NCBI GenBank assembly: GCA_963662795.1
Contig: OY759746.1
Span: forward strand, 2,976,001 to 3,040,000
DNA: 64,000 nucleotides
Source: Spirochaetia bacterium
GTDB lineage: Bacteria > Spirochaetota > Spirochaetia > CADAEX01
Reading direction: 5' to 3'
Shown here piece after piece: positions 4,009 to 62,636 of this stretch (within the stretch, counting starts at the first letter, position 1; each line of letters starts with the position of its first letter). A program made the position numbers and the translations under genes. Under the pieces are notes generated by a model. The model worked only from the letters and a program-made list of their open reading frames with translations. It was not told the DNA's origin and searched no databases.

Positions 4009-4051
4009 TCTGTTCCGGCAATTAACTGAAAGATATCAAGGAGATAATTTT

Positions 4052-5155: not shown

Positions 5156-5215
5156 ACTTCAGCGTCTGCCAGGAAAATGCAGTTAAAAAAGCAGGCTTTG
5201 CCGTCAATTATGGAT

Positions 5216-5263
5216 AAAAAAAAGGAGCGGTGTCCCGGCCGCTTAGGCCTTAACAGCGCTCCT
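5216..5263 (-). terminator. rho-independent terminator of the TRAP/aminotransferase operon
   Basis: AGGAGCG...CGCTCCT stem with an inner GGCC/GGCC stem, followed by a T8 tract on the minus strand. Confidence 0.7.
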
Positions 5264-5287
5264 ATAAAAAACCTGTAAGCTTTATTA

Positions 5288-6403: not shown

Positions 6404-6445
6404 TTTCCATCTCCTGTAAATAAATATTTCCTAAAATTAAAATTA

Positions 6446-7732: not shown

Positions 7733-8186
7733 CCTTCTTAATGAATTTCATTGCTGACAGCAGACTGTAAAACGCAATACCAATAAATCCAATAAAAATG
7801 GGTATTGTAAAAAAAACCATCGGCATTCTTGTTGAAGCACTGCGTATATTCTTTTCAATAATTATCTGAATAAAAGTTGCATACAGCAGCAGACAGGAAA
7901 AAATAAAAATAAGCAGGTGATTAAATATATTGACAGTTCTTTTCACCGGGTCTGAAAACTTGTTGTAAAAAAAATTGACTTCAAGATGCTTGTCGTCATG
8001 TGAAGCAAGCGCGCTTCCCATGAACGTAAACCAACAAAAAGAAAGTCTTGAAAATTCATCTGTCCATATAAGCGGATTGTTAAGTAAATAACGGAAAAAA
8101 ACCTGAAGTAGAACACTTATTACTATTCCGAACAGAGATAGAGCCAATATAATAGTGTAGAATTTTTCCGTAAACAGCTTTGTCAT
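7716..8186 (-). CDS. TRAP transporter small permease (DctQ)
   Basis: QVFFRY...WTDEFSR...H motif; 4 TM; lies next to DctM. Confidence 0.92.
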   Translation of the reverse strand: MTKLFTEKFYTIILALSLFGIVISVLLQVFFRYLLNNPLIWTDEFSRLSFCWFTFMGSALASHDDKHLEVNFFYNKFSDPVKRTVNIFNHLLIFIFSCLLLYATFIQIIIEKNIRSASTRMPMVFFTIPIFIGFIGIAFYSLLSAMKFIKKDAKNA

Positions 8187-8194
8187 AATAACTC

Positions 8195-9562
8195 CTATTT
8201 AATTCTGACATCCTGCAATATCAAGACCTTTTGAACATCAGAAATGCAGACGCCGGATGTTGATGTTCCGTTTTTTATGGATATGGCAGCGGCAACACCT
8301 GCAGCCTGTCCGGTAAGTATACAGCAGCTCATGTTTCTGAAAGCGCAATGGGCGATCCTGTCGCCTGAAATTGATCTGCCGGCTACAAGAAGATTGTCAA
8401 CTTTTTTGGGAACCAATGTCCTGTAGGGCACCTGGAAGTACCGTCCTGTGAGCGGCAGAATCAGCGTATTGCATCCGTCAATAAATTCCGGATATATTCC
8501 GATTGAATCATCGAATCTTGCCTGATTTTTAACATCATATTCCGTCAGATAATAATGTCCTTCAATTTTTCGTGATTCTCTGGTTCCGAGAGTCATGCCG
8601 AAATTTCTCAGCCTGGCATTCTGGAATCCGGGCACATATTTATTTAATGCCCTGATTGTATAAAGAGCGCTTTCCCTGCCGCTGATTTCGGCCATTGTCA
8701 GATCATTTATATCTGTACAGTCAATATTTTTAATAAAAATCAGATTAAGCTGGGTTGCGTCCCCTTCCTTTGACAGCGTACTCCATGTTCCGCCTATTCC
8801 GATATTCTCATCTTTTGGAATAAAACCGTCTTTTTGAGCCTGCCGAAACGGTTTTTCCATAAACGGGCTGAACATGTCTAATCCGTTATCTGCTATTTCC
8901 TGCCCCCAGCTTTCTCCGCCCCAGTCTCTGTATGTCGGTTTTAAAACATTTTTAACATAATCTTCAAATTCATCTTTTTTTACCCCCCGGCAGGAAAACA
9001 TCTGTGTTACGGACATTAAGCTTTTCTTAGCTGCCTTTGTGTAGGGTGCACCTGAATAAGCTGCAATATCAGCATCTCCCGTGCAGTCAATTACCCTTTT
9101 TGCAAGTATCGCAATCCTGCCGGATTTGCTTTCGGTTATCAAACCTTTTATAATTCCGTTTTCAATTATCGCGTCTGCTGCAAAGCAATGCAGTACAGGT
9201 CTTATTCCAGCCTCGTCTACCAGCTGGTCTGCTACATACTTAAACATTTCAGCATCAATTGCTTCACTGTCTGATTGAACTTCCTTAGCCGTTGCTCCAA
9301 GGGATTTTGCTTTCTGTTCGAATTCAATACAGAGTCCGCCGGCTTCATTGGTTTTTTCATGTCTGTACCAGGCTATTGCCTCAACACCTACCTGACTGAG
9401 TACGCCTCCGAAACAGCCGTACCTTTCCAGAAGAAGGGTATTCATCCCCTCGCGCGCCGATGCTATCGCGGCCGCAAGCCCTGAGGGGCCCCCACCGACT
9501 ACCAATACATCTGTTTCAGCAAAAACCGGTATATCTCTGGATTTCTCTGTAACTGTTTTCAT
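8195..9562 (-). CDS. FAD-dependent oxidoreductase (FAD_oxidored family), substrate unknown
   Basis: DVLVVGGGPSG Rossmann motif, IDCTGDADIA, RESRKIEG, NLLVAGRSISGD, GQAAGVAAA. Confidence 0.9.
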   Translation of the reverse strand: MKTVTEKSRDIPVFAETDVLVVGGGPSGLAAAIASAREGMNTLLLERYGCFGGVLSQVGVEAIAWYRHEKTNEAGGLCIEFEQKAKSLGATAKEVQSDSEAIDAEMFKYVADQLVDEAGIRPVLHCFAADAIIENGIIKGLITESKSGRIAILAKRVIDCTGDADIAAYSGAPYTKAAKKSLMSVTQMFSCRGVKKDEFEDYVKNVLKPTYRDWGGESWGQEIADNGLDMFSPFMEKPFRQAQKDGFIPKDENIGIGGTWSTLSKEGDATQLNLIFIKNIDCTDINDLTMAEISGRESALYTIRALNKYVPGFQNARLRNFGMTLGTRESRKIEGHYYLTEYDVKNQARFDDSIGIYPEFIDGCNTLILPLTGRYFQVPYRTLVPKKVDNLLVAGRSISGDRIAHCAFRNMSCCILTGQAAGVAAAISIKNGTSTSGVCISDVQKVLILQDVRIK

Positions 9563-9677
9563 TATTTGCCTTGATAAAATAATTATAGGTTAATTTAAAT
9601 TATATTTAAGATAAATCTGAGTGCCGGATAATCATGAATATATTCAGACTAAACGGCACCCATCTTTTTAAGTTAAA

Positions 9678-10679
9678 TTATTTCAGTTCTTTCTGAATTT
9701 TTTCAAAAAGACCCTTTTCCCAGAACCCTTCATTTTCGATAGCTATTGCGGCTGCCGGAATAACAGCATTTCTGAAAGGAGCAGTGTCTACTTCCCATAC
9801 TGTAACACCTTCGGCTTTCATCTTGTTGATATACTCATCCTGGAGTTTATCAATCTCGCTTACAAACCATTTATTAACTTCCTTGTCTGTTTCAAGGAAA
9901 AGTTTTTTATACTTCTCGGGAACAGTATCCCACCATTTCTGGTTTACGGTAAATCCTGTAACATCGTAGGAATGATAGGTAAGGGTGAGGTTTTTTGCGA
10001 CTTCATACCATTTCATGTTATAAAGTGATTCAACATGATTTTCAGCTCCGTCTACAAGGCCCTGTTTAATGGCAAGGTATGCTTCATTGAAAGCAACCGG
10101 TGTGGGGGTTGCGCCCATTGCCTTGAAGCTTTCGATATAAAGTTTTGCGTCAGGAACACGAATTTTAACACCTTTAAGATCGTCGATGTTTTTAACCGGG
10201 TTTTTTGTAAGGATATGGCGCGGAAGTCTTGTCCAGCTTGCTGTAACATACCTGATGCCATGTTCTTTTGATAACTGATCATTCAGTGCAGACATTGTCG
10301 GTCCGAGAGCCACTTTTTCAGCCTGTTCCCGGCTTTCAAAAAGATAGATAAATTCAGCAATTGAAAGACTTCCCTGCAGTCTGCCGAGAGAGCTGATACT
10401 GCCGCGGAATGCCTCAATTGTACCTGATTTAACCTGTGCAAGCTGCTTGGATGTATCCCCTAGCTGAGAGGCGTGATACGGTTCAACAATAAAAACGCCG
10501 CCTGATTTTTCTTTCATGATAGCCGCAAACTTGTCGACAGCTTTTGCTCCAAGATTGTTAACGTTTTCAATTGTTCCGACCCTCATCACAATTTTTTCTG
10601 CATCAGCTTCTTTCTTGCCTCCTGCAAATGCAAAGACGGTACAAACAATAAGTAATGAAACGAGAATAATTCTTTTCAC
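9678..10679 (-). CDS. TRAP transporter substrate-binding protein (DctP), carboxylate-binding type
   Basis: DLKGVKIRVP (conserved Arg present), GATPTPVAFNEAYLAIKQGLVDGAEN; signal peptide. Confidence 0.93.
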   Translation of the reverse strand: MKRIILVSLLIVCTVFAFAGGKKEADAEKIVMRVGTIENVNNLGAKAVDKFAAIMKEKSGGVFIVEPYHASQLGDTSKQLAQVKSGTIEAFRGSISSLGRLQGSLSIAEFIYLFESREQAEKVALGPTMSALNDQLSKEHGIRYVTASWTRLPRHILTKNPVKNIDDLKGVKIRVPDAKLYIESFKAMGATPTPVAFNEAYLAIKQGLVDGAENHVESLYNMKWYEVAKNLTLTYHSYDVTGFTVNQKWWDTVPEKYKKLFLETDKEVNKWFVSEIDKLQDEYINKMKAEGVTVWEVDTAPFRNAVIPAAAIAIENEGFWEKGLFEKIQKELK

Positions 10680-10793
10680 TGTTTTCCTCCTGTAAAAAAC
10701 AATTTAAATATTATTTTTTAAAAGCAGTTCATATGCTTCTTAAAATAATCAAATCAAGTTGTAGAATATTAAAAAATGCAATTGCCTTTCACT

Positions 10794-10823
10794 ATTGTAA
10801 ATTGACACTGTCTTTTCTGTCAA
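10794..10823 (-). promoter_or_regulatory. promoter of the dctP operon
   Basis: minus-strand TTGACA-N18-TACAAT, overlapped by an imperfect copy of the IclR-type operator (TTTCACTATTGTAAA, 10787-10801). Confidence 0.55.
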
Positions 10824-10846
10824 GAAAAAGTTTTAAAAAATAAAAT

Positions 10847-10869
10847 ATAATTTCACTAATTGAAATTAT
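10847..10869. promoter_or_regulatory. palindromic operator, probably for the adjacent IclR regulator
   Basis: perfect 9-5-9 inverted repeat ATAATTTCA-CTAAT-TGAAATTAT abutting TTGACT-N16-TATAAT (10869-10896). Confidence 0.65.
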
Positions 10870-10919
10870 TGACTTTCCCCAATAAAAATGTATAATACCA
10901 ATAACGGCAGGGTAAAAAA

Positions 10920-11690
10920 ATGAACACTACAAAAGGTAATCAATCATTAGCCAAGGCACTTCAAATCATAGAAGTCATGGCAGAACATAAGGCTCCTATG
11001 AGACTTCTTGATATAGCAAACGCTGTTGAAATGTCTCCAAGTACAGTTCTAAGATTCTTAAAGACACTTAAATCAAAGAATTACGCCGGACAGGATCCGG
11101 TTACCCTTAATTATTATCCAACCATGAAATTTCTGGTAATCGGTAACTTAATAAGTTCACAGATGAAGATCCGTGATATTGTTCGTCCGTATCTGGTCGA
11201 AATATCACGTCAATGCGGTGAATCCTCAAGTCTTGCGATTCTTCAGGATCTTGAAGTAATCTATATCGATTATGTTGAGGGGCCGGATTTGATCCTGAAA
11301 ACCCTGCAACGAATCGGCAAAATTGCGCCTGTTCACAGTACCGGCGTGGGAAAATGCCTGATGCTCAACTTTGATGAAAATAAAATTGATGAGCTCATAA
11401 GCAAAAAAGGTCTTACTGCATTAACTGATAAAACTATCACTACAAAAAATGATCTTGTAAAAGAACTGGATTTTGTCAGACAGCAAAACTATGCTCTTGA
11501 TAATGAAGAATGCGAACAGCAGGTAAAATGTGTTGCAGTTCCAATTCGCGATTATACTCAAAAGGTAGTTGCAAGTATCAGCGTATCTGCTCCCCTCGGA
11601 AGATTGGCTGAAAACAAAATGCAGTATATATTATCCCTGCTCAGGGAAACATCCGATGCAATATCAAAAATACTGGGGTACATATCATGA
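10920..11690 (+). CDS. IclR family transcriptional regulator
   Basis: N-terminal wHTH (SLAKALQIIE...STVLRFLKTL), HSTGVGK, YALDNEE, CVAVPI. Confidence 0.95.
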   Translation: MNTTKGNQSLAKALQIIEVMAEHKAPMRLLDIANAVEMSPSTVLRFLKTLKSKNYAGQDPVTLNYYPTMKFLVIGNLISSQMKIRDIVRPYLVEISRQCGESSSLAILQDLEVIYIDYVEGPDLILKTLQRIGKIAPVHSTGVGKCLMLNFDENKIDELISKKGLTALTDKTITTKNDLVKELDFVRQQNYALDNEECEQQVKCVAVPIRDYTQKVVASISVSAPLGRLAENKMQYILSLLRETSDAISKILGYIS

Positions 11691-52136: not shown

Positions 52137-53555
52137 ATGAAAAAATCAAAATCACGCGTTGCTTTTTACACACTCGGGTGCAAGCTGAATCAGTTTGAGA
52201 GTGAAGTCCTTGCAGATTCTTTTTTGTCTGCCGGAGCAGATATCGTACCTGTATCAGAAAGCGCCGACATCTATATTATAAATACATGCACGGTAACCTC
52301 AAAAAGCGAGCAGAAGGCACGGAGGATAATAAGAAAAATCTCACGGGACTATCCCGGGGCAGTCGTAGTTGTAACAGGCTGTTATGCGCAGCTTGACCCG
52401 GATAAGATAGAAGATCTTGCTGATAATCTGCTTGTAATACCCCAGGACAAGAAACATCTGCTGCTTAAAAGCACGGAATTGCTTCTTGATTCCTGTATCG
52501 AACCTCAGGATGCGGTACCGCTGCTTAAAGAATTTATCAGGGAAAACACCGGGGTAAAGTCAGCCTCACGATTACAGCTGAAATCACAGCCTCAAACACA
52601 AACAGTGAAACCGGAGGAGAGCAGTTTTTATACTGTCACAAAAGGATTTCAGTTCCATTCCCGCGCATTTCTTAAAATTCAGGACGGCTGCGATAATTTC
52701 TGCAAATACTGCAGGGTTCCTCTTGCCAGAGGCAGATCCAGGAGCCTTGATCCTGACCATGTTATCTCAAATATTATTGATATTGAAAAATCCGGCTACA
52801 ATGAACTTGTTCTTACCGGAGTCAACATCTCTTCCTATAAATCCGGCGGTCTTGACCTGGTTTCCCTGATAGAGAAAATTCTTGCTGGCACGGAAAAGAT
52901 GCGGATACGGTTGTCGTCTCTTGAGCCTGACAGCATAGACGAACGGTACCTTGATATCATAAAAATGGAAAGGATATGCGGCCATTTCCATCTGCCTGTA
53001 CAGTCAGGCTCGGATACCATTCTCTCCGCAATGGGCAGAAAATATAAAAGAGACAAGGTAACAGAAGCTGTATCACTCCTGAGGCAGAAGGGGAATAATC
53101 CTATGATATCAGCTGATGTCATAACAGGATTTCCCGGAGAAACTGATAAGGATTTCGGGGATACATGCGATCTCGTGATTAAAAATGAATTCGCCTATCT
53201 TCATGTATTCCCCTTTTCCCCCCGTCCCGGAACAGCTGCTTTCAGGATGAAAAACCATGTTCCTGAAAGGATTTCAACGGAAAGGGCCGAACACCTTAGA
53301 AATTTATCCGGAAAGCTTTTTGCATCCTATGCATCAAAATGTATAGGGATGAGCGCCTCCGCAATTATCGAGGGAAGGGAAGGGGCTTTAAAAGATGTCT
53401 GGAACGGGATCTCTGATAATTATCTCAAGCTTAAAATAAAAGGTTTTCAGGAAGATAAAGACCCCCTGAAGGGAAGCATAGTCAACTGTGTGATAGAAAA
53501 GCACAGGGAGAATGAAGGAAACAGTTTTGACGCCGGTTTTACTTCTTTCGGCTGA
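52137..53555 (+). CDS. mtaB: tRNA t6A37 methylthiotransferase
   Basis: TLGCKLNQFES, INTCTVT, TGCYAQ, RAFLKIQDGCDNFCKYC, VLTGV, RLSSLEP, HVFPFSPRPGT. Confidence 0.93.
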   Translation: MKKSKSRVAFYTLGCKLNQFESEVLADSFLSAGADIVPVSESADIYIINTCTVTSKSEQKARRIIRKISRDYPGAVVVVTGCYAQLDPDKIEDLADNLLVIPQDKKHLLLKSTELLLDSCIEPQDAVPLLKEFIRENTGVKSASRLQLKSQPQTQTVKPEESSFYTVTKGFQFHSRAFLKIQDGCDNFCKYCRVPLARGRSRSLDPDHVISNIIDIEKSGYNELVLTGVNISSYKSGGLDLVSLIEKILAGTEKMRIRLSSLEPDSIDERYLDIIKMERICGHFHLPVQSGSDTILSAMGRKYKRDKVTEAVSLLRQKGNNPMISADVITGFPGETDKDFGDTCDLVIKNEFAYLHVFPFSPRPGTAAFRMKNHVPERISTERAEHLRNLSGKLFASYASKCIGMSASAIIEGREGALKDVWNGISDNYLKLKIKGFQEDKDPLKGSIVNCVIEKHRENEGNSFDAGFTSFG

Positions 53556-53640
53556 AAAACTCCTTTTTAGTCCGCCTGAATGGTCTCATTCCTTCAGATC
53601 ATAAACAGCAATTTTAAGGTTAAAAAAACTCACCAAATGA

Positions 53641-53669
53641 TTGACAATTTTTTTGAATACTGCTAAATT
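53641..53669 (+). promoter_or_regulatory. tRNA operon promoter
   Basis: TTGACA-N17-TAAATT with extended TGn. Confidence 0.7.
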
Positions 53670-53688
53670 GCCAAAGTCCTAATAGACT

Positions 53689-53761
53689 GGGCCGCTAGCT
53701 CAGCTGGTAGAGCAACGCCCTTTTAAGGCGTGGGTCAATGGTTCGAATCCATTGCGGCTCA
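53689..53761 (+). tRNA. tRNA-Lys(TTT)
   Basis: cloverleaf with acceptor GGGCCGC/GCGGCTC, anticodon arm ACGCC-CTTTTAA-GGCGT, TTCGAAT T-loop; CCA not encoded. Confidence 0.97.
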
Positions 53762-53815
53762 TACAGTACTTGATGGCTTGAATACTTTACTTGAATAATG
53801 CAGGTACTGCTTTAT

Positions 53816-53887
53816 GTCTCCTTCGTCTAGTGGTTAGGACAGTGGGTTTTCATCCCGCCAACAGGGGTTCGACTCCCCTAGGAGATA
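53816..53887 (+). tRNA. tRNA-Glu(TTC)
   Basis: cloverleaf with acceptor GTCTCCT/AGGAGAT, anticodon arm GTGGG-TTTTCAT-CCCGC, TTCGACT T-loop; CCA not encoded. Confidence 0.97.
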
Positions 53888-53893
53888 GTGATT

Positions 53894-53930
53894 TGGGGAT
53901 TTATCAAAACTGGTAAATCCCCATTTTTTT
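53894..53930 (+). terminator. rho-independent terminator of the tRNA operon
   Basis: TGGGGATTTATCA-AAAC-TGGTAAATCCCCA followed by T7. Confidence 0.88.
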
Positions 53931-54057
53931 GCCTTCTAATTAGTATTTCAGCCAGAAGATTATTTCATCCCAACATTTTATTAAAATACAATTCGAATAG
54001 ATCCGTAAACTGTTTTCAGTCAATTGATAATCAGCCATTCCAGATTCTATAAGTATA

Positions 54058-54147
54058 TATATTTAAATGATAATTATTTAAAAATAAGTTGACAAATAAT
54101 TATTGCCAGGGTTAGAATGAATGATAATCATTTATATTTAAATGATA
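54058..54147 (+). promoter_or_regulatory. promoter bracketed by a 15-bp direct repeat
   Basis: TATATTTAAATGATA at 54058-54072 and 54133-54147; TTGACA(54089)-N18-TAGAAT between them. Confidence 0.6.
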
Positions 54148-54191
54148 CATGATTGTTTGACATCATGCATTTATCCTCAGAGGTTTGTTTT

Positions 54192-55304
54192 ATGGAAAAA
54201 AAAATGTTGTTTGCTCCTGGACCTGTTATTACTACTGAAAGAGTTAAAACAGCTGCTTTAATACCGGATATTTGCCACCGCAGCAAATATTTTGAAGAAA
54301 TATTATCTGAACTCCGGCCGAAAATACTGAAAATTTACAACTGTGACGATTCATATACTTCCGTAGTTATAAGCGGATCAGGAACCGCATCCAATGAATC
54401 GGTATATTCATCTCTTTGCGGCAGCAGTGATAAAGTATTGCTCATTACAAATGGTGAATTCGGAAACAGATTAAAAGATATTATCGAATGCTACAATATT
54501 AATTACAAAGAGCTGAAATATGAATGGGGAGAATATCCTGATTGTGAAGATATCGAAAAAATCCTGAAAACAGATAAAGAAATAACAATTGTCGGGATGG
54601 TTTGTCATGAGACCAGCACCGGAATAATCAATCCGGTGAAAGATGTTGGAAATTTATGCAAAAAATACAGTAAATTGTTTTTTCTTGATTCAATCAGCGC
54701 CGTCGGCGGAGAATACCTTGATTTCAGTGAGTATAATGTTGATGTGTGTACTGGAGTGCCGAATAAATGTGTCTCAGGGCATCCCGGTACTTCTTTTCTT
54801 GTCTTAAGAAAAAATCTGATACAAAAAGCCTATGATACAAAGCCCCGGAATATCTATTTAAATCTGGGGAGACATATAAAAATCGCTGAAGAAAAAAACC
54901 AGACCCCAAATACTCCTTCGGTAATAATGATTAATGTTTTACTCGAATCAATTAAAGAGCTGCTTGAAGAAGGAGTCGAAAACAGGATCAGAAGATATAA
55001 AAAACTGGCCCGGATAATACGAGATGGATTATCCGAAATGGGACTGGAAATATTTTTAACTGATCCTGCTCAGATGGCAAATACTGTTACAACAGTATAT
55101 CTACCCAAAAAAATACCAATGAATGTGTTTTTAACTGAAATGGAAAATGAAGGGTATGTATTTTACGATGGAAAAGGCGATCTGAAATCAAAAAATCTTT
55201 TTCAGATAGCAAATATGGGAAATCTTGACGAGAAAGACTGCCGCGAAATGTTAAAGGTACTGAAGAAGGTTTTGATAAAAAAATTCAATTATGAAGTTAC
55301 TTGA
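54192..55304 (+). CDS. PhnW-like class V PLP aminotransferase
   Basis: LFAPGP, DICHR, SGSGTA, NGEFG, HETSTG, DSISA, PNKC (PLP Lys), QTPNTP. Confidence 0.9.
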   Translation: MEKKMLFAPGPVITTERVKTAALIPDICHRSKYFEEILSELRPKILKIYNCDDSYTSVVISGSGTASNESVYSSLCGSSDKVLLITNGEFGNRLKDIIECYNINYKELKYEWGEYPDCEDIEKILKTDKEITIVGMVCHETSTGIINPVKDVGNLCKKYSKLFFLDSISAVGGEYLDFSEYNVDVCTGVPNKCVSGHPGTSFLVLRKNLIQKAYDTKPRNIYLNLGRHIKIAEEKNQTPNTPSVIMINVLLESIKELLEEGVENRIRRYKKLARIIRDGLSEMGLEIFLTDPAQMANTVTTVYLPKKIPMNVFLTEMENEGYVFYDGKGDLKSKNLFQIANMGNLDEKDCREMLKVLKKVLIKKFNYEVT

Positions 55305-55403
55305 TTTTTTGGCTATTAAAATTCTCATGTTTGAGAATTGAAATAAAATAGTTTGGGGGATTTTTATGAAAAAGATTTTTTATTTTTTTACTGGAGGTTT
55401 AAA

Positions 55404-56495
55404 ATGAAAAAAAAGTATCTAAGTCGTCTATTTTTAATTATCGGCATGGCAGCAATTGTAGCTTTTGCGGCTGTAACATTTACCGGCTGCGCCCAGAAAG
55501 CAGGAGGAAGTGAAACAGCACAGACAAAAAAAGATACAATCAAATGGCGCTTGCAGACATATGCCGGTCCATCAATGAATGATGATATTATTGGCAACAA
55601 AATCAAGGAATTTAACAAAATTGCTGACGGAGAGATGGTAATTGAGATGTTCGGAGCTGATCAGCTCGTCCCTCATGGAGAGTTATTTAACGCTGTTCAA
55701 AAAGGTACTATAGATATGGCAGTCAGCGATGATGAATCTATGGGCTCACCGGCGGATGTAGCAGTATTTTCCGCATATTTTCCAGCAGCCGGAAGAATTG
55801 GACTTGATATTGATGTTTTATGGAATCGTTACGGTTTGAATGAAATCTGGAAAGAAGCTTATGATGAGATTGATGGTGTTACCTGGCTTGCTCAGGGTAG
55901 TTGGGACCCTTGTCTTGTAGCTAGCAATAAACCAATTAGAAAAGTAGAAGATCTTAAAGGCTTAAGACTTTTTACTTCTCTTTTTAATGGAAAATTTCTT
56001 GAAGCAGAATATGGTGTTGTTCCTGTTGTAATGCCTGTGGAAGATGTTCAAATGGCACTCCAGACCGGAATGCTTGATGGTGTTACCTGGTCGGGTGCAA
56101 CTGAGCTTTACACAACAGGGATTGCTGATGTTTGTAAATATTTGCTGACCAATCCAATTTCCGGCGCATGGTCCGGGGGTTTCTTTGTAAATACAAAGTC
56201 ATGGGAAGCTGTTCCTGAACGCCTTCAGAGGCTGCTTCTTTTGACAATTGAAAGTTCGAACTATTACAGACTGAACTGGTATTGGTGGGGAGAAGCACGG
56301 TACAGAGCAGAAGGCAGCAAAATGGAGCTTACATCAATTCCTGACAGCCAGTGGACAGGCGTTGAAGTCCAGGCTAATAAATACTGGGATGAATTTTCCA
56401 AGAAAAGCCCAAGGTCAGCAAGAGTTATTGAAGCATTTAAAAAGTACTCAGCTATCAGAGAGAAAGCCGGTGCGCCTTACACCAGCGGTAAGTAA
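55404..56495 (+). CDS. TRAP substrate-binding lipoprotein, non-carboxylate (ethanolamine-binding-like) type
   Basis: lipobox FTGC; WRLQTYAG, ADQLVP, SWDPC, LKGLRLF (Phe at the usual Arg position), ISGAW, WYWWGEAR. Confidence 0.9.
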   Translation: MKKKYLSRLFLIIGMAAIVAFAAVTFTGCAQKAGGSETAQTKKDTIKWRLQTYAGPSMNDDIIGNKIKEFNKIADGEMVIEMFGADQLVPHGELFNAVQKGTIDMAVSDDESMGSPADVAVFSAYFPAAGRIGLDIDVLWNRYGLNEIWKEAYDEIDGVTWLAQGSWDPCLVASNKPIRKVEDLKGLRLFTSLFNGKFLEAEYGVVPVVMPVEDVQMALQTGMLDGVTWSGATELYTTGIADVCKYLLTNPISGAWSGGFFVNTKSWEAVPERLQRLLLLTIESSNYYRLNWYWWGEARYRAEGSKMELTSIPDSQWTGVEVQANKYWDEFSKKSPRSARVIEAFKKYSAIREKAGAPYTSGK

Positions 56496-56518
56496 ATAAT
56501 AAGTTGAAAATATTTAAT

Positions 56519-56548
56519 ATCTAATCCTGGAGAGATTCAGGATTAGAT
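56519..56548. other. intra-operon stem-loop after the SBP gene
   Basis: ATCTAATCCTG-N8-CAGGATTAGAT. Confidence 0.6.
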
Positions 56549-56631
56549 TATAACACTGCCTTATTTTATTGCTGTTTATAAGGAATACGGCAGGGATTTT
56601 CAGTAAAACGACAAATGGAGGAGTGGAATTT

Positions 56632-57177
56632 TTGATTAACCCAATAAAAATTTACGTAAAGTCCATGGATTCAATAAGCATCCTGATAGGCAATATTGTA
56701 AAATTCCTTGTTTTGTTAATGATAGCTGTATTGGCTTATGAAGCTGTCTCAAGGAATATTTTTGGTAATTCCAATAAATGGTCTTTGGAGATAACTCAAT
56801 TTATTAACGGAACCTATTATTTGCTGGGCGGAGCTTATGTCTATCTTATAGGCGGGCATGTAAGAATGGATTTTTTTTATGAAAGATGGTCCCGAAGAAA
56901 AAAAGCCATTATCGATATTTGTACTTTTATATTAAGTTTGGCATATCTGACAGGTCTGTTAATTGGAGGGATTTCCAGTTCTTATTATGCGGTAAAATAC
57001 AATCAGACAAATTATTCGGCATGGGGCCCTCCTATAGCCCCAATGAAGATTATTGCTACAATAGGTATAATTTTAATGTTATTACAGAATATATCAGAAC
57101 TTATTAAGGATATCGTAATAGCTTTTGGCAAAGATAGTTCCTGGATAAAGAATTGGAGTATAGATAATGAGTTTTGA
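56632..57177 (+). CDS. TRAP small permease (DctQ)
   Basis: YEAVSR, WSLEIT, GHVRMD; 4 TM; TTG start after GGAGGAG. Confidence 0.92.
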   Translation: MINPIKIYVKSMDSISILIGNIVKFLVLLMIAVLAYEAVSRNIFGNSNKWSLEITQFINGTYYLLGGAYVYLIGGHVRMDFFYERWSRRKKAIIDICTFILSLAYLTGLLIGGISSSYYAVKYNQTNYSAWGPPIAPMKIIATIGIILMLLQNISELIKDIVIAFGKDSSWIKNWSIDNEF

Positions 57178-58486
57178 ATTTATTGCTTTATTAATGTTTC
57201 TTACGATGTTTGTTACACTTTTGTCGGGACGTCATATTTATGCCGTTATAGGCGGAGTCGCGGCTATTTTCTCAATAATACTTTGGGGAACCGGTGGAAT
57301 AGATATGGGGTACCATTCTGCTTTTAAGCTTATAAACTGGTATCCTTTGGTAACGCTGCCGATTTTTGTATTTATAGGGTATTTGTTTTCCGCATCAAAA
57401 ATATCTGAGGATTTGTACCGCCTGATTCATGTTTTAACAGGTCCTCTTAGGGGAGGATTGGCCATTGGTACCATTGTCCTGATGGCAATTATATCGGCAA
57501 TAAATGGTTTAAGTGTAGCAGGTATGAGTGTCGGAAGCAGTGTTGCCCTGCCGGAAATGCTGAAGAAGAATTATGATAAAAAAATGGTAACCGGAGTAAT
57601 TCAGGCGGGGAGCTCTCTTGGTATTCTGATTCCTCCCAGTGTAGTTCTTGTTCTCTATGGAATGATCGCAAGACAACCTGTGGGACATCTCTGGCTGGCA
57701 GGTGTTTTCCCCGGTCTTTTAATGTCTGCTTTATTTGTTCTTTATATTGTAGTCCGGTGCTGGTTTCAGCCGGAACTGGGACCGGTTTTGCCGAGGGAAG
57801 AATGGGATATACCTGTTATGGAAAAGGTAAAAGCTCTCAGGGGCGGATTACTTCCTTTATTTATAATATTGATGATGTCGGGACTTTTTTTACTGGGAGT
57901 AACCAGCCTTGTCGAAAGTTCAGCTATTGGGGCTATCGCAACAATAATTGCAGCAGGAATCAAGAAGCGGTTGAACTGGAAAATACTTAATAGCGTTTTA
58001 ACAAACACATTAAATGTCAGCGGCATGTTTATGTGGGTTGCCATGTCGGCAATGGCCTTTGCTGCAATTTTTGACGGACTTGGAGCTGTTCATGCGATAT
58101 CAACATTGTTTTTGAGTCATGGTTTTGGTCCAATTGGTACGATTATTGCTATGCAGGTTTCATTTTTATTATTAGGCACTTTCCTCGATGATACAGCCAT
58201 GTTGATTATAGTCGCTCCTTTATATATCCCTCTGGTGGTTACTTTAGGTTTTAATCCGATATGGTATGGTGTTCTTTATACGATAACCTGTCAGATAGCG
58301 TATCTTACACCGCCGTTTGGATATAATCTTTTTCTCATGAAGGCGATGGCTCCAAAGGAAATCAGTCTTAGTGATATCTATCGTTCTATTGTTCCTTTTA
58401 TATTTCTCATGATTTTAACGATAGTTATATTAATTATATTTCCGGAAATTGCTACCTGGTTACCTGATTTATATTTTTCGAAATAA
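57167..58486 (+). CDS. TRAP large permease (DctM)
   Basis: LVTLPIFVFIG, SSLGILIPPS, IAYLTPPFGYNLF. Confidence 0.95.
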   Translation: MSFEFIALLMFLTMFVTLLSGRHIYAVIGGVAAIFSIILWGTGGIDMGYHSAFKLINWYPLVTLPIFVFIGYLFSASKISEDLYRLIHVLTGPLRGGLAIGTIVLMAIISAINGLSVAGMSVGSSVALPEMLKKNYDKKMVTGVIQAGSSLGILIPPSVVLVLYGMIARQPVGHLWLAGVFPGLLMSALFVLYIVVRCWFQPELGPVLPREEWDIPVMEKVKALRGGLLPLFIILMMSGLFLLGVTSLVESSAIGAIATIIAAGIKKRLNWKILNSVLTNTLNVSGMFMWVAMSAMAFAAIFDGLGAVHAISTLFLSHGFGPIGTIIAMQVSFLLLGTFLDDTAMLIIVAPLYIPLVVTLGFNPIWYGVLYTITCQIAYLTPPFGYNLFLMKAMAPKEISLSDIYRSIVPFIFLMILTIVILIIFPEIATWLPDLYFSK

Positions 58487-58509
58487 GAGAAATAATATTG
58501 AGAATAAAG

Positions 58510-60009
58510 ATGAACGAATATATTTTATCAATAGACCAGGGAACAACTGCTACAAAAGTGGTCCTCTACACCTTAAATGGGGATATTATGGCAATAAGCA
58601 CTCAGCCTGTTAAGCAGTATTATCCTCAGGACGGATGGGTGGAGCATGATCCCTATAATATCCTTGATTCCATAAAAATTGGAATCAGGGATATATTATG
58701 CAAAACTGAAATAACGAAAGATCAAATACTCGCTATTGGAATAGATAATCAGGGCGAAACAATAATTCCTTTTGATCGAAAAACCGGGGAACCATTATAT
58801 AATGCCATAGTCTGGCAGGATAGAAGGACCAGTCAATTCTGCAACCGGATGAAAGATGTTCTTGATGAAGCAATTATTACAGAAAAGACAGGGTTATTCC
58901 TTGATCCCTATTTTTCAGCACCCAAAATGAACTGGCTGATAAAAAACGTTGATAAAGTGAAAGAATCAATCAATAAAGGAAACGCAGTTATTGCAACATC
59001 GGATGTGTGGTTGTTGTATATGATAACAGGCAGACAATCGATAATGACTGATGTTACAACAGCTTCGAGAACATTATTGTTCAATATCAACGAATTGCAA
59101 TGGGATAATGAACTACTGGAATTATTTGAAATTCCTGAAAATGTGCTGCCGAAAATAGTGCCGTCTTCCTGGTTTTTTGGATTATCTGACCCTTCGGTAT
59201 GCGAAGGAATATCTGCACCTATTCATTCATCTGTGGTAGATCAGCAGGCTTCTCTTTTTGGCCACACGTGTTTTAATAAAGGAGAAGCCAAGATTACTTA
59301 CGGTACAGGAGGATTCCTGTTACTTAACACGGGTAAAGAAAGACTGAAATTAAATGACAGGATTTCTACAACAATTGCAGCTCAATATAATGATGAGATA
59401 AATTATGCCATAGACGGCGGAGTATATTGTGTCGCGTCCTGTATAAACTGGCTTATTAACGAATTGAAAATTGTATCCAGTCCGCAGGAATTAAGTGAGA
59501 TAAAATTTGATTTAAAAAATCCCTGCAGCACCTATTTTGTTCCATCAATGGCCGGTATTTCTGCACCATACTGGAAATCCGACTTGAAAGGAGCTTTTTT
59601 AGGATTATCACTTAATACAGGAGGGAATGATTTAATCAGGGCCATGATAGAGGGTATTGCCTACAGGTTTATGGATCTTGTTGAAATTATCAGAAATAAC
59701 GGGTTCGGGGAAATCTCATCAATATCTGTTGACGGCGGGGTAAGCAGAAATGATTTTCTTATGCAGTACCAGTCTGATCTTCTGGGTGTGAAAATGCAGA
59801 GACCTGCTGTACGTGAAACAACTTCACTGGGTTCTTTTTATCTGGCTGGATTGAAAACCGGAATATGGAATGATGTGAAGTCATTAAAAGAGAAAAAAGT
59901 AGATGAAAAAATATTTATACCGGAAAGTAATAATTCAGAAATAATACAAAACTATATAATATGGCAGAAAGCAGTAAAAGCAATTATTAACTGGCATGAT
60001 AGTTTTTAA
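58510..60009 (+). CDS. FGGY family kinase, glycerol kinase-like with an altered substrate site
   Basis: IDQGTT, GWVEHDP, AIVWQDRRT, DPYFSAPK, DQQASLFG, KITYGTG, VDGG; DNQGET replaces TNQRET. Confidence 0.9.
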   Translation: MNEYILSIDQGTTATKVVLYTLNGDIMAISTQPVKQYYPQDGWVEHDPYNILDSIKIGIRDILCKTEITKDQILAIGIDNQGETIIPFDRKTGEPLYNAIVWQDRRTSQFCNRMKDVLDEAIITEKTGLFLDPYFSAPKMNWLIKNVDKVKESINKGNAVIATSDVWLLYMITGRQSIMTDVTTASRTLLFNINELQWDNELLELFEIPENVLPKIVPSSWFFGLSDPSVCEGISAPIHSSVVDQQASLFGHTCFNKGEAKITYGTGGFLLLNTGKERLKLNDRISTTIAAQYNDEINYAIDGGVYCVASCINWLINELKIVSSPQELSEIKFDLKNPCSTYFVPSMAGISAPYWKSDLKGAFLGLSLNTGGNDLIRAMIEGIAYRFMDLVEIIRNNGFGEISSISVDGGVSRNDFLMQYQSDLLGVKMQRPAVRETTSLGSFYLAGLKTGIWNDVKSLKEKKVDEKIFIPESNNSEIIQNYIIWQKAVKAIINWHDSF

Positions 60010-60115
60010 ATCTGAATATGCTTTAATAATTTTAACAACCTTTTTATCTGAAAATTCAGGGTTTCAGACTTGGCAACATTTATCAGTTCTATATAATTAC
60101 TGAAGGTTGGGATCT

Positions 60116-61054
60116 ATGAACATCGAACATCTTAAAATTTTTTATTATACTGCGAAATTTAAAAATTTTACTAAAGCTGCTGAATTTTTAAATATTACTC
60201 AACCGTCTGTAACAAGACTGATCTATGAATTCCAGGATAAACTTGGCCTTGTTTTGATTAATAAAAACGGAAAAAGCTTTGTACTGACAGATCCCGGTAA
60301 AAAAATTTATGAAATGGCTGAAAAAATATTTGAAATAGAATTAAAAATTGAAGAATGCGTCAGAGACATAAAACAGCAGAAATCAGGAATTATAAATATA
60401 TTAACAACAGAGACATACGGCGCTCATTTTATGCCGGAATTTCTGGTTGAATACAAGAGGCTGTATCCCGGAATTTTATTAAATGTAACAACCTTGCCCA
60501 ATGATCAGGTAGTTGAACTTACAAGCCATCTTGAATGTGATTTCGGAATTATATCAAAAAAACTTAAAAACCAGAAATTACTTGTAAAAAATCTTCTTGA
60601 GGAAAAAATTGTTCTTATATCGGCGCCTGGTAAACCTCTGGCGAAACGAAAGGAATTAAGCCCTCAGGAAGTAAACAATCTTCCAATTATTTTGTTTGAA
60701 GAAGAATGCGGCACAAACGAAGCTGTCATGAAATTCAAGAAAAAAAATAATCTGGAATTCGATGTAAGATGTATATTTTCCAACAGCGAATCAGTAAAAA
60801 GCCTTGTGAAAAAAGGACTTGGGTACGCGTTTATATCAAGAAATGTTATTAAAAATGAGGTTGCCAGAAATGAACTTGTTGAAATCAACGTACTTGATGA
60901 GACTCTTGTAAGGCAGTTTTATATTATTTATCATAAAGAAAAATATATCTCCAATACATTAAAGACTTTTATTGATATCATGATTGAGTGGTCTGATAAA
61001 TATACAGAAAAAATAAAACAGGAAATAACACGAATTAATTTAAAAAAGTCATAA
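60116..61054 (+). CDS. LysR family transcriptional regulator
   Basis: NFTKAAEFLNITQPSVT HTH; LTDPG; about 312 aa. Confidence 0.94.
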   Translation: MNIEHLKIFYYTAKFKNFTKAAEFLNITQPSVTRLIYEFQDKLGLVLINKNGKSFVLTDPGKKIYEMAEKIFEIELKIEECVRDIKQQKSGIINILTTETYGAHFMPEFLVEYKRLYPGILLNVTTLPNDQVVELTSHLECDFGIISKKLKNQKLLVKNLLEEKIVLISAPGKPLAKRKELSPQEVNNLPIILFEEECGTNEAVMKFKKKNNLEFDVRCIFSNSESVKSLVKKGLGYAFISRNVIKNEVARNELVEINVLDETLVRQFYIIYHKEKYISNTLKTFIDIMIEWSDKYTEKIKQEITRINLKKS

Positions 61055-61068
61055 TGAAGCATGAATAG

Positions 61069-61197
61069 CACTTTTCTGAGTTCCTCAAAATATCTTCATC
61101 AAAAGACCCGGAAGAAAAGTTCGGCATTCATGAAAAAGGGATACCGTGCTCAGGCGTTAAATGTCCTGTCTGTAATACAAATTTAGAAAGAGATTAA
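61069..61197 (+). pseudogene. start-less 3' remnant of a small Cys-rich (zinc-ribbon-like) gene
   Basis: open frame ...HEKGIPCSGVKCPVCNTNLERD* with no ATG/GTG/TTG, preceded by an in-frame TAG at 61066. Confidence 0.45.
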
Positions 61198-61205
61198 TTC
61201 TTTTT

Positions 61206-62636
61206 CTAAATTACTTCAACTTTCATCATATTAACCTTATTTGATTCAAGCAGCGGAATACCAGCCACAAAAATAACAGTATCTCCGGTTTTGATATATC
61301 CAAGTTTCAGGGCAAGTTCTTTTGCCCTTTTCAGGGTTGAGTCAGTATCTGACATATTGTCAATCAGCTCACCTTTTACCCCCCATACCATGATCAGGTG
61401 TTTTATTATTTTTTCCTTTTCAACAAAGGCGATGACAGGCGTATTTATCCGGAACCTTGAAAGCATTCTCGCTGTTTTACCTGTTTTTGTGATGACAATT
61501 ATGGCAGCTGAGTCAATATCAACTGCAAATGAACAGACTGCTCTTGTCATGTTGTTGACAAGAAAATCGCTGGAGTTTTCATCTTTATTTCTCCTCAGTC
61601 TCATCCGGTTAGTATAAAAACCTTTTTTTTCAGCTTTCCCGCAGATCCTTTTCATCATGGATACAGTTTCAACCGGGTAGTTTCCAACAGAAGTTTCACC
61701 GCTCAGCATGACAGCGTCGGTGCCGTCAAGAACTGCATTGGCTACATCGCTTGCTTCTGCCCTTGTAGGGCGCGGGGAGCTTATCATGGATTCAAGCATT
61801 TGTGTTGCAGTGATAACAGGTTTGTTCTTTTCTATGCATTTGGAAATTATCATTTTTTGAATCATCGGTACTTCTTCAGGAAGAACTTCAACTCCGAGAT
61901 CTCCACGTGCAATCATTACAGCATCGCTTTCCTCACAGATTGAATCAATATCATTAACAGCAGCAGGTCTTTCAATTTTTGCTATGACAGGTATATCTGA
62001 GGTCTTTCTGATAATAATTGATTTAAGCTCTCTTATGTCAGCGCCGCTTGTAACAAATGACATTGCGAAAAAGTCAGCTCCGATTTTTATCCCGAAATCG
62101 ATATCTTTTCTGTCTTTTTCTGTTATAAGCGGGGTTGATATTTTAGTTCCAGGAAGGTTTATTCCTTTTCTGGACTGGATCAGTCCGCCGTCAATTACTT
62201 TACATATAACATCAGTATCTGTTGTATCAATTACTTCGAGTTTGATAAGGCCGTCATTGATCAGAACCGGGTCTCCTTTTTGAACATCAGACGGAAGATT
62301 TTTATAGCTGGTTGAGACCCTCTCTCTGGTTCCTGTAATGTTTTCTGAAGTAATAATTAATTCTTCACCTTTTGATATTTCAAAAGGCTCCTTCATTTCT
62401 CCGAGTCTTAGTTTTGGTCCACAGAGGTCAGCAATAATAGGTATCGGGTACCCGATCATCTTTTCGGCCTTCCTGATGTTTTCAACAATCGCCAGTTTGC
62501 TTTCGTCGGAACCGTGTGACATGTTGATTCTTGCAATATTCATTCCGTTTCGGGCAAGTTTAATTATTGTTTCCGTTTCAGCTGAGGCCGGGCCTATTGT
62601 GCATATGATTTTTGTTTTGTTGAACAGTACCGGCAT
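61206..62636 (-). CDS. pyk: pyruvate kinase
   Basis: KTKIICTIGP, ARINMSHG, IAKIE, MIARGDLGVE, ATQMLESM, PTRAE, DAVMLSGET. Confidence 0.98.
   Translation of the reverse strand: MPVLFNKTKIICTIGPASAETETIIKLARNGMNIARINMSHGSDESKLAIVENIRKAEKMIGYPIPIIADLCGPKLRLGEMKEPFEISKGEELIITSENITGTRERVSTSYKNLPSDVQKGDPVLINDGLIKLEVIDTTDTDVICKVIDGGLIQSRKGINLPGTKISTPLITEKDRKDIDFGIKIGADFFAMSFVTSGADIRELKSIIIRKTSDIPVIAKIERPAAVNDIDSICEESDAVMIARGDLGVEVLPEEVPMIQKMIISKCIEKNKPVITATQMLESMISSPRPTRAEASDVANAVLDGTDAVMLSGETSVGNYPVETVSMMKRICGKAEKKGFYTNRMRLRRNKDENSSDFLVNNMTRAVCSFAVDIDSAAIIVITKTGKTARMLSRFRINTPVIAFVEKEKIIKHLIMVWGVKGELIDNMSDTDSTLKRAKELALKLGYIKTGDTVIFVAGIPLLESNKVNMMKVEVI

Follow-up and report, generated by a model that had tools for sequence, protein, structure and literature searches.

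What substrate is served by a gene cluster that couples a transporter to a relative of glycerol kinase and a relative of aminotransferases? This question is raised by a cluster of a Spirochaetia bacterium (assembly GCA_963662795.1), which we analysed within a 64,000-nucleotide stretch of contig OY759746.1 (positions 2,976,001 to 3,040,000 of the forward strand; hereafter the window, in whose numbering coordinates are given). Six co-oriented open reading frames (ORFs) lie on the + strand between 54153 and 61054 and encode a class V pyridoxal 5'-phosphate (PLP) enzyme, the DctP, DctQ and DctM components of a transporter of the tripartite ATP-independent periplasmic (TRAP) type, an FGGY kinase and a LysR-family regulator. 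A first-pass annotation, made from the sequence alone, had described the same co-oriented unit without other enzymes, and the six ORFs with their Pfam and NCBIfam calls agreed with it. Comparative genomics strongly supports a predicted logic of import, phosphorylation and amine removal, and the evidence tips slightly in favour of a unit that breaks down a small vicinal amino alcohol. A specific and widespread two-enzyme route from serinol to dihydroxyacetone phosphate (DHAP) is proposed more tentatively, at somewhat less than even confidence. The genes and the residues discussed below were as follows; residue numbers count from 54153 in the PLP enzyme and from 58498 in the kinase, with the codons checked, and the starts at ATG 54192, 55404 and 58510 were chosen from homologues.

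54192-55304, + strand: class V PLP enzyme; PF00266 at 2.8e-21; the ORF opens with TTG at 54153, likely start ATG 54192
54276-54281, + strand: His42-Arg43 of the PLP enzyme
54687-54689, + strand: Asp179 of the PLP enzyme
54765-54767, + strand: Lys205 of the PLP enzyme, the predicted PLP lysine
55203-55205, + strand: Gln351 of the PLP enzyme
55404-56495, + strand: DctP, TRAP solute-binding protein, predicted Csal_0678/EtoX family; PF03480; the ORF opens at 55353
55971-55973, + strand: Phe207 of DctP
56569-57177, + strand: DctQ, TRAP small membrane subunit; PF04290 at 5.3e-21; the real start may be further in
57167-58486, + strand: DctM, TRAP large membrane subunit; 11-base overlap with dctQ; PF06808 at 4.9e-67, TIGR00786 at 262.8 bits
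58510-60009, + strand: GlpK-paralogous FGGY kinase; PF00370 and PF02782; the ORF opens with TTG at 58498, likely start ATG 58510
58744-58746, + strand: Asp83 of the kinase
58753-58755, + strand: Gly86 of the kinase
60107-61054, + strand: LysR-family regulator; PF00126 at 1.9e-12, PF03466 at 7.7e-42

Substrate sites of the kinase, the PLP enzyme and the binding protein

The window kinase aligned over its full length with Escherichia coli GlpK (PDB 1bo5; E 2.1e-131) and carried both domains of the FGGY superfamily (PF00370 at 2.9e-63, PF02782 at 5.2e-29). It passed the looser GlpK subfamily model NF000756 (559 vs 498 bits) and stayed below the cut-off of the GlpK equivalog TIGR01311 (529.2 vs 590.35 bits). 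The motif TNQRET of E. coli GlpK was DNQGET in the window kinase, which placed Gly86 at Arg83 and Asp83 at Thr80 of the E. coli enzyme (Gly83 and Asp80 hereafter). Glu84, Trp103, Tyr135, Asp245 (which we take to be the catalytic base), Gln246 and Phe270 of E. coli GlpK were all kept, among them as Glu87, Trp106, Tyr138, Asp248 and Phe273 in window numbering. Arg83 is one of five GlpK signature residues, with Glu84, Tyr135, Asp245 and Phe270, that are described as extremely well conserved (PMC3245297; for this and the other papers cited by PMC number, our statements hold for excerpts), and it binds glycerol hydroxyls (PMC2680290). The window kinase had the other four signature residues and Gly in place of the Arg, in agreement with the first-pass description of a glycerol-kinase fold that had exchanged its glycerol-binding Arg for Gly and gained an Asp.

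A separate GlpK with the Arg, 40% identical to the window kinase, is encoded in the same genome (G000:C1:190962-192449). Among the best 120 database homologues of the window kinase, 119 covered the motif, 57 with Gly83 and 62 with Arg. Six alignment positions split 59 Gly-type from 22 Arg-type kinases (83 D/T, 86 G/R, 188 T/N, 247 V/G, 308 G/S and 310 Y/F); position 247 adjoins the catalytic Asp, and positions 308 and 310 are near the residue aligned with the Glu that, in the excerpt consulted, pairs with Arg83 in the Plasmodium enzyme. When the kinase tree was rooted with a distant outgroup, the Arg83 sequences formed one cluster (support 0.88) nested among Gly83 lineages.

The PLP enzyme had the class V fold (PF00266), and its Lys205 and Asp179 aligned with the Lys of 'NKC' and the Asp of 'DAMS' in PhnW. 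Its nearest solved relatives were PhnW structures (1m32, 9kk8; E ~1e-47), closely followed by archaeal serine-pyruvate aminotransferases. PhnW-AepZ (TIGR03301) was the best curated model, with 299.5 bits against a cut-off of 360.8, and TIGR02326 was also missed (228.8 vs 400.8). The substrate site was another matter: Arg340, presumably the residue that binds phosphonate and pyruvate in Salmonella PhnW, aligned with Gln351 in the motif FQ[IV]ANMG, and Cys41-His42-Arg43 had no counterpart in PhnW. Both features were invariant when 20 sequences were aligned, and CHR and FQ were kept in all of the commonest motif variants of 121 PLP-enzyme sequences. The His-Arg pair aligned with 'SHR' of the genome's two SerC proteins, which we take to be the phosphate clamp, and the Gln with the Arg of SerC 'GGMRAS', which presumably binds the alpha-carboxylate; SerC 'GHR' was aligned with 'GKG'. 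The likeness to SerC ended at the N-terminal His-Arg, the curated SerC model giving 49.7 bits against 443.6. These alignments indicate that the PLP enzyme is like PhnW globally and not in its substrate site, so that the first-pass comparison with PhnW stands for the overall fold and fails for the residues that would hold the substrate. On the simplest reading of the site, the substrate would be a phosphate ester without a carboxylate, rather than a phosphonate. Serinol phosphate is phosphoserine with CH2OH instead of the carboxylate, and human PSAT1, a class V enzyme, forms it from DHAP at a very low rate (PMC9283133).

No phosphonate-degrading partner was seen: the best PhnX score in the genome was 109.7 bits (cut-off 220), in line with the first-pass remark that phnX is not present, and neither PhnX nor phosphoenolpyruvate (PEP) mutase adjoined the PLP gene in the cluster; PhnA and PhnY were not searched for. 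Three PEP-mutase-like genes were found elsewhere in the genome (G000:C1:588367-589215, 1470102-1470959 and 2493146-2493958), at 0.59, 1.47 and 2.49 Mb and thus 0.5-2.4 Mb from the cluster at 3.03 Mb. Since one of them exceeds the curated cut-off, phosphonates are probably made by the organism.

DctP had the PF03480 domain and lacked the conserved Arg of carboxylate-type TRAP binders (the equivalent of SiaP Arg147). In a MAFFT alignment, Phe207 stood in the G-x-K-x-R column of this carboxylate-binding Arg; each of 12 other DctP-family proteins encoded by this genome had Arg there, and all four Csal_0678-like relatives had Phe. The best structural matches were PDB 4uab and 4xf5 (E 9e-111; next-best chain 2e-15), whose entry titles name Csal_0678 of Chromohalobacter salexigens. 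An AlphaFold model of DctP (mean predicted local distance difference test score, pLDDT, of 81) matched 4xf5 and 4uab with Z scores of 39.4 and 39.0, a root-mean-square deviation of 2.0, 315 and 314 aligned residues and 52% identity. Csal_0678 lacks the Arg147 equivalent and binds ethanolamine (PMC4646407); EtoX of Phaeobacter binds ethanolamine with a dissociation constant of 7.9 uM as part of a gamma-glutamylation pathway, and ethanolamine-type TRAP systems are abundant in the ocean (PMC10132767). The fold model and the alignments place the window DctP in this ethanolamine-binding Csal_0678/EtoX family, and the family match makes its Arg-less TRAP an amino-alcohol binder of a kind already described. 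The absence of the Arg had been noticed correctly by the first-pass annotation, which needs the correction that such a TRAP is not new. We read the N-terminus of DctP as a lipoprotein signal with a terminal Cys (TFTGC).

A second Csal_0678-like binding protein is encoded in the same genome (locus L224, G000:C1:776000-793000, 2611-11490). It is 60% identical to the window protein, has Tyr at the Arg position and is accompanied by DctQM, a canonical TRAP, a GntR regulator, an Asp/Glu-racemase-like protein and an Octopine_DH-family dehydrogenase. This dehydrogenase is 40% identical to one that adjoins a kinase and PLP enzyme in L108, and Octopine_DH genes lie within the module in L107/L123 and L108/L124, a hint that the amino alcohol may occur in an opine-like conjugate.

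Linkage of the kinase and the PLP enzyme across genomes

A scan with the back-translated kinase motif, one genome per species, gave 17 loci from Spirochaetia, Atribacterota, Desulfocapsa, Hyphomicrobiaceae and a proteobacterial metagenome-assembled genome (MAG). The PLP enzyme was encoded within the 8-kb stretch in 13 of the 17, in at least four gene orders, and a Csal_0678-like TRAP in nine. We also searched from the other side with an alignment of the PLP enzyme and took the best 80 of 153 relatives, 74 of which had a full PLP-enzyme ORF. A GlpK-like kinase was present in 47 of these 80 loci (within 500 bp in 38), and in 35 of the 49 that had at least 3 kb on both sides. All 51 kinases of the PLP-side loci had Gly83 and kept the W, Y, D, Q and F residues; position 80 was Asp in 47, Ser in two, Ala in one and Asn in one. 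Their hosts included Anaerovorax, Hominibacterium, Hornefia, Brotomerdimonas, Clostridioides difficile, Oscillospiraceae, Synergistaceae and Desulfobacteraceae.

The control was a set of 80 ordinary GlpK loci, from a profile search with the kinase alignment that such loci had swamped through the NAIVWQD pattern and that yielded no useful relatives. The xNQRET motif was found in 79 of them, and neither the PLP enzyme nor a Csal_0678-like binding protein was encoded within ~9 kb of any of the 80. The kinase and the PLP enzyme are thus linked across phyla, more than by chance (13/17 and 47/80 loci, against 0/80 controls); the first-pass annotation had named co-occurrence of the homologues as a check. 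By these sequence comparisons, conservation of the putative module extends over six or more phyla. It was found in Spirochaetia, Atribacterota, Desulfobacterota, Alphaproteobacteria and Synergistota and in many Clostridia of the gut.

The transporter beside the pair varied. In the 47 loci it was an APC permease in 24, usually together with an AraC regulator, a Csal_0678-like TRAP in nine, EutH in four and a PotD-like ATP-binding cassette (ABC) transporter in three, with none recognised in seven; all four recognised types carry amines or amino compounds. DeoR/GlpR-type regulators, which usually sense sugar phosphates, recurred in these loci. No aldehyde or alcohol dehydrogenase was among the recurrent neighbour families of the PLP-side loci, which fits a product that needs no further pathway, such as DHAP.

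The second enzyme varied as well. In six loci (Desulfocapsa, a Hyphomicrobiaceae MAG, a Proteobacteria MAG and plasmids of Tistrella mobilis, Chelatococcus sp. CO-6 and Rhizobium sp. ACO-34A), a flavoprotein pair stood in place of the PLP enzyme: a protein with DAO and BFD-type [2Fe-2S] domains, and a Pyr_redox_2 protein. The kinases beside it had Gly83, in DNQGES or ANQGES for the plasmid-borne ones, and the transporter in Desulfocapsa and the two MAGs was a Csal_0678-like TRAP or an APC permease. The pair was 57-58% identical between Desulfocapsa and the alphaproteobacteria and was absent from all 80 control GlpK loci; in two of the genomes that have it, no relative of the PLP enzyme was found at E 1e-20. 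In the kinase tree, the three kinases from Desulfocapsa and the two MAGs were sisters of PLP-enzyme-linked kinases (supports 0.99 and 1.00). Since they replace one another behind the same kinase, the PLP enzyme and the flavoprotein most plausibly do the same job, the conversion of C-NH2 to C=O, which is the single chemistry that both would obviously have in common. The best curated match of the DAO protein was a type 2 glycerol-3-phosphate oxidase (225 bits, cut-off 460); such a scaffold suggests action at C2 of a glycerol-3-phosphate analogue and hence points to serinol phosphate. On the Chelatococcus sp. CO-6 plasmid (L211, 1398-12102), the TRAP, flavoprotein pair and Gly83 kinase have as immediate neighbours the eutBC genes for ethanolamine ammonia-lyase and a DeoR/GlpR regulator.

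A homologous module occurs in C. difficile 630 as CD630_07400 (PLP aminotransferase), CD630_07410 (glpK1) and CD630_07420 (eutH), tags that were matched to our loci by gene names and order only. Identity to the window proteins is 45% for the PLP enzyme and 40% for the kinase, the latter with DNQGET and Gly83; the module differs in having EutH instead of TRAP, DeoR instead of LysR and a divergent gene arrangement. In published work, which concerns expression only, CD630_07400-07420 were reported as most enriched in a toxin-producing, inflammatory state in mice, and no substrate is given for them (PMC8803604). CcpA has the glpK1-eutH operon among its targets, and a gene that responds to WalR has also been reported (PMC3510511, PMC9210968).

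Several further neighbours were observed. A calcineurin-type metallophosphoesterase adjoins the PLP enzyme in Desulfobacteraceae (L165, L183, L187; with a PotD-like ABC transporter and no kinase) and in Spirochaetes (L110/L122, L112/L125, L117, L128), and in two loci of Atribacterota the kinase gene is followed by one for an MBL-fold protein; the phospho-amino alcohol could possibly come directly from a phosphodiester precursor. The PLP-enzyme family is paired with another type of FGGY kinase, ~22% identical to that of the window, in L153, L155, L178, L181 and L193 (and L139). These loci also have an M81/MlrC-type metallopeptidase, an Opp-like ABC transporter and a DeoR regulator, and their substrate may arrive as an amide or peptide conjugate, with the kinase taking a different amino polyol. 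A divergent gene of the transaldolase/fructose-6-phosphate aldolase (FSA) family is found beside the PLP enzyme in L108/L124 (Spirochaetota) and in L173 and L177 (Chloroflexota), the last two without a kinase and with a DAO-GCV_T fusion. In 17 loci of Firmicutes (e.g. L137:6939-7325, L135:3649-4056), the gene of a conserved protein of ~128-135 aa separates those of the APC permease and the AraC regulator; we considered a RidA-type deaminase and dropped it, as there was no Pfam match by which to recognise one.

Proposed pathway and rival explanations

From the gene set, residue changes, family memberships and linkage observed above, we infer a substrate, an order of steps, a type of PLP reaction and a product. 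A lipoprotein-anchored binding protein of the Csal_0678/EtoX family would capture a cationic amino alcohol, and DctQM would import it. The GlpK paralogue, with Arg changed to Gly and an Asp three residues upstream, would then phosphorylate a primary hydroxyl. The class V PLP enzyme would hold the resulting phosphate ester by its SerC-like His-Arg pair, with Gln at the carboxylate/phosphonate site, and would turn the amine carbon into a carbonyl, yielding a triose phosphate that could enter glycolysis directly. The favoured version starts from serinol (2-amino-1,3-propanediol), which would pass through serinol phosphate to DHAP. The core of this scheme, import of a small cationic amino alcohol followed by phosphorylation and loss of the amine without further enzymes, had been put forward in the first-pass annotation and is supported by the linkage, by the exchange of transporters and second enzymes, and by the lack of an aldehyde enzyme; the substrate is put forward more tentatively.

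The scheme has partial precedents. Pathways that join an amino-alcohol kinase to a PLP phospho-lyase act on 1-amino-2-propanol in mycobacteria, and a phosphoethanolamine phospho-lyase is found in animals. Their logic of supply, ATP-dependent O-phosphorylation and a PLP enzyme that acts on the phosphate ester is the one proposed here. Their kinases are of the APH/choline-kinase type and their lyases of class III, and their aldehyde products need a dehydrogenase, unlike the proposed route. The Csal_0678/EtoX systems of Chromohalobacter salexigens, Phaeobacter sp. MED193 and Paracoccus denitrificans plasmid 1 share with the window the binding-protein family, its Phe and the DctQ/DctM partners; their clusters contain a glutamine-synthetase-like enzyme, aldehyde and alcohol dehydrogenases and an N-formylglutamate amidohydrolase-like hydrolase, whereas the window has the kinase and the PLP enzyme, and a Pfam scan found no gamma-glutamylation enzyme in the cluster. 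The gamma-glutamylation genes were seen next to homologues of the binding protein on Paracoccus denitrificans, Microbulbifer and Ruegeria plasmids. Compared with E. coli GlpK (1bo5/1gla), the window kinase has the same FGGY fold and differs in Gly83, Asp80, four more positions and its amine-transporter neighbours. The PLP enzyme shares the fold, PLP Lys and Asp with PhnW (1m32, 9kk8) and the class V fold and His-Arg with SerC/PSAT, whereas it has Gln for Arg340 of the former, which lacks the His-Arg, and for the carboxylate Arg of the latter. Cj1437 of Campylobacter jejuni transaminates DHAP to serinol phosphate in biosynthesis (PMC11800397). The proposed reaction would run in the opposite direction to that of Cj1437 and of RtxA of Bradyrhizobium (the latter as cited in the first-pass annotation), which serve capsule and rhizobitoxine synthesis. 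Both enzymes presumably belong to other aminotransferase families.

Several points weigh against the serinol route. The linkage counts lean to close relatives, as the 80 loci were the best of 153. The Gly83 kinases were not resolved as a single clade; the tree gave a grade around the Arg83 clade, and its root is uncertain. The Gln at the carboxylate site weakens the reading as a transaminase, as the binding of a 2-oxo acid acceptor is then hard to explain. Two of the four transporter types, the EtoX-like TRAP and EutH, are named after ethanolamine. We compared kinase-linked binding proteins (n=14) with gamma-glutamylation-linked ones (n=3, a number that makes the comparison weak) and found only two consistent differences, Val/Ile at 215 and Ser/Arg at 266; the comparison did not tell ligands apart and gave no sign of a ligand other than ethanolamine. 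Lastly, no large natural pool of free serinol has, to our knowledge, been documented for sediments or the gut.

Ethanolamine is accordingly a serious candidate, in view of the hardly distinguishable binding proteins, the genome without EutB and the glpK1-eutH context in C. difficile, though we regard it as unlikely. It would be imported, converted by the kinase to phosphoethanolamine and split by a PLP phospho-lyase, the chemistry that makes most sense for it, into acetaldehyde, ammonium and phosphate, a B12-independent route with counterparts in the phosphoethanolamine phospho-lyase of animals and in the pair of aminopropanol kinase and phospho-lyase of bacteria. The binding protein is close to proven ethanolamine binders, with almost no group-specific change, EutH shares an operon with the C. 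difficile kinase, and the Gln in place of the carboxylate-binding Arg suits an enzyme that needs no 2-oxo acid. A flavoprotein pair that replaces the PLP enzyme would, however, be incapable of phosphate elimination, no conserved aldehyde or alcohol dehydrogenase lies beside the kinase and PLP enzyme as it does in the gamma-glutamylation clusters, and of the residues that bind a three-carbon polyol, Arg83 is the only one that the kinase has lost. The kinase module of Chelatococcus adjoins eutBC and so is found where ethanolamine would already be handled; C. difficile has a full eut system. The genes of the C. difficile module, most enriched in the inflammatory condition, are discussed alongside ethanolamine use (PMC8803604), which speaks for ethanolamine. 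A less probable substrate is 3-amino-1,2-propanediol, which would be imported, phosphorylated at O1 and transaminated at its terminal amine to glyceraldehyde 3-phosphate. The evidence for an amino diol applies to it equally, PhnW-AepZ, the nearest curated model, works on a terminal amine, and the Arg83 change could mark the distal glycerol hydroxyl. Yet the enzyme imitates the way in which phosphoserine is bound, and the amine would lie one carbon further from the phosphate than it does there; oxidation by a GlpA-like flavoprotein would be expected at C2 and not C1, and the literature searched gave no biological source of the compound (chemistry papers only). Csal_0678 (PDB 4xf5, with 2-amino-1-propanol) is also taken by us to tolerate a substituent on the amine-bearing carbon and not on the carbinol carbon.

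The two enzymes might also act in reverse order, with the PLP enzyme converting free serinol to dihydroxyacetone (or aminopropanediol to glyceraldehyde) before the kinase phosphorylates the triose. E. coli GlpK accepts both dihydroxyacetone and glyceraldehyde, and the transaldolase/FSA-like genes beside the PLP enzyme in L108/L124, L173 and L177, the last two without a kinase, would suit this order. We hold it to be quite improbable: the loss of Arg to Gly with a gained Asp suits an ammonium group and not a ketone, the PLP enzyme keeps the His-Arg pair that aligns with the phosphate-binding motif of SerC, and the flavoprotein that replaces it is nearest to enzymes acting on a phosphate ester. 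Taking the annotations at face value, as a 2-aminoethylphosphonate transaminase (PhnW/AepZ), a TRAP for dicarboxylates and a normal glycerol kinase that just happen to be neighbours, is very improbable. It is true that PhnW-AepZ and GlpK are the best curated models, that the homologues are entered in public databases as glycerol kinase and alanine-glyoxylate aminotransferase family protein, and that the genome has PEP mutase genes and probably makes phosphonates. Against this, both equivalog scores are under their cut-offs, and Gln replaces PhnW Arg340, Gly replaces GlpK Arg83 and Phe replaces the carboxylate Arg of DctP; the PEP mutase genes are far from the cluster, no PhnX reached the cut-off in the genome, and the pairing, which recurs from phylum to phylum, was seen in none of the 80 control GlpK loci. 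For the same reasons (residue changes, sub-cut-off scores, distant PEP mutase genes and conserved pairing) we rejected a role of the cluster in phosphonate biosynthesis.

Locus boundaries and biological meaning

The cluster is delimited upstream by a tRNA pair and a terminator-like hairpin (together 53688-53923), with mtaB also upstream, and downstream by a convergent pyruvate kinase gene; no further enzyme gene lies between these boundaries. The surrounding features were as follows.

53688-53762, + strand: tRNA-Lys(ttt); ARAGORN and Rfam tRNA match
53815-53888, + strand: tRNA-Glu(ttc); ARAGORN and Rfam tRNA match
53894-53923, + strand: terminator-like hairpin, a 13-pair stem followed by a T run
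54089-54118, + strand: promoter-like candidate, TTGACA, 18-base spacer, TAGAAT; 11 of 12 consensus matches; 74 bases 5' of the first ATG
60070-60097, + strand: promoter-like candidate, TTGGCA, 16-base spacer, TATAAT; 11 of 12 consensus matches; just 5' of the LysR gene
61206-62636, convergent: pyruvate kinase gene (Pfam)

The two promoter-like sites were the best-scoring ones of the region in a consensus scan, and they are candidates only, as the total of such sites in the region was not above that of shuffled sequences. An Rfam search of 53400-61400 for a riboswitch or other RNA returned the two tRNAs only. A LysR gene occupies the equivalent place after the kinase in three related Spirochaetia loci, with 96% identity in L109/L119 and ~39-40% in L103/L131 and L113. 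The G+C content of the cluster (0.31-0.40) is slightly under that of the left flank (0.39-0.45), and the window kinase is 72% identical to Atribacterota proteins; it is conceivable that the cluster was gained by transfer beside the tRNA genes.

A second TRAP cluster lies in the window at 3980-11690, on the - strand, with a canonical DctP that has the Arg (9678-10679), DctQ, DctM, a 455-aa protein without a family call (8195-9562) and a second class V aminotransferase (5288-6403, - strand). This enzyme is closest to those of the BhcA/AGT type, keeps the carboxylate Arg and has His-Met instead of His-Arg. An IclR-type regulator (10920-11690, + strand) and an Ldh_2-family dehydrogenase (3980-5155, + strand) lie beside this cluster.

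The TRAP family is already known, as is the transamination between DHAP and serinol phosphate in biosynthesis. Nowhere did we find a description of the GlpK paralogues with Gly83, of the class V enzymes with His-Arg/Gln or of the conserved pairing between them. In the literature searched, there was no report of such a pathway, which matches the first-pass statement that no described pathway with this gene set was known, and likewise none of a serinol kinase, of serinol catabolism, utilization or degradation, or of a serinol-phosphate or phosphoethanolamine aminotransferase.

If the proposal is true, it would define three new specificities: a serinol kinase (Gly83/Asp80), a serinol-phosphate aminotransferase (His-Arg/Gln) and, in genomes with the flavoprotein pair, a GlpA-like serinol-phosphate dehydrogenase. 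One or two active-site residues would then have changed the specificity of two well-studied enzyme families, and many public entries named 'glycerol kinase GlpK' and 'alanine-glyoxylate aminotransferase family protein' would be mis-named members of an amino-alcohol pathway. The substrates of the ethanolamine-type TRAP family would have a second catabolic fate. Should the serinol route in particular hold, serinol, or a compound much like it that is set free from lipids or capsules or by metabolite damage, would be a real nutrient in the gut and in sediments, and the C. difficile glpK1 locus (CD630_07400-07420), enriched in toxin-driven inflammation, would gain a function. More broadly, a module conserved across at least six phyla would have a testable function.

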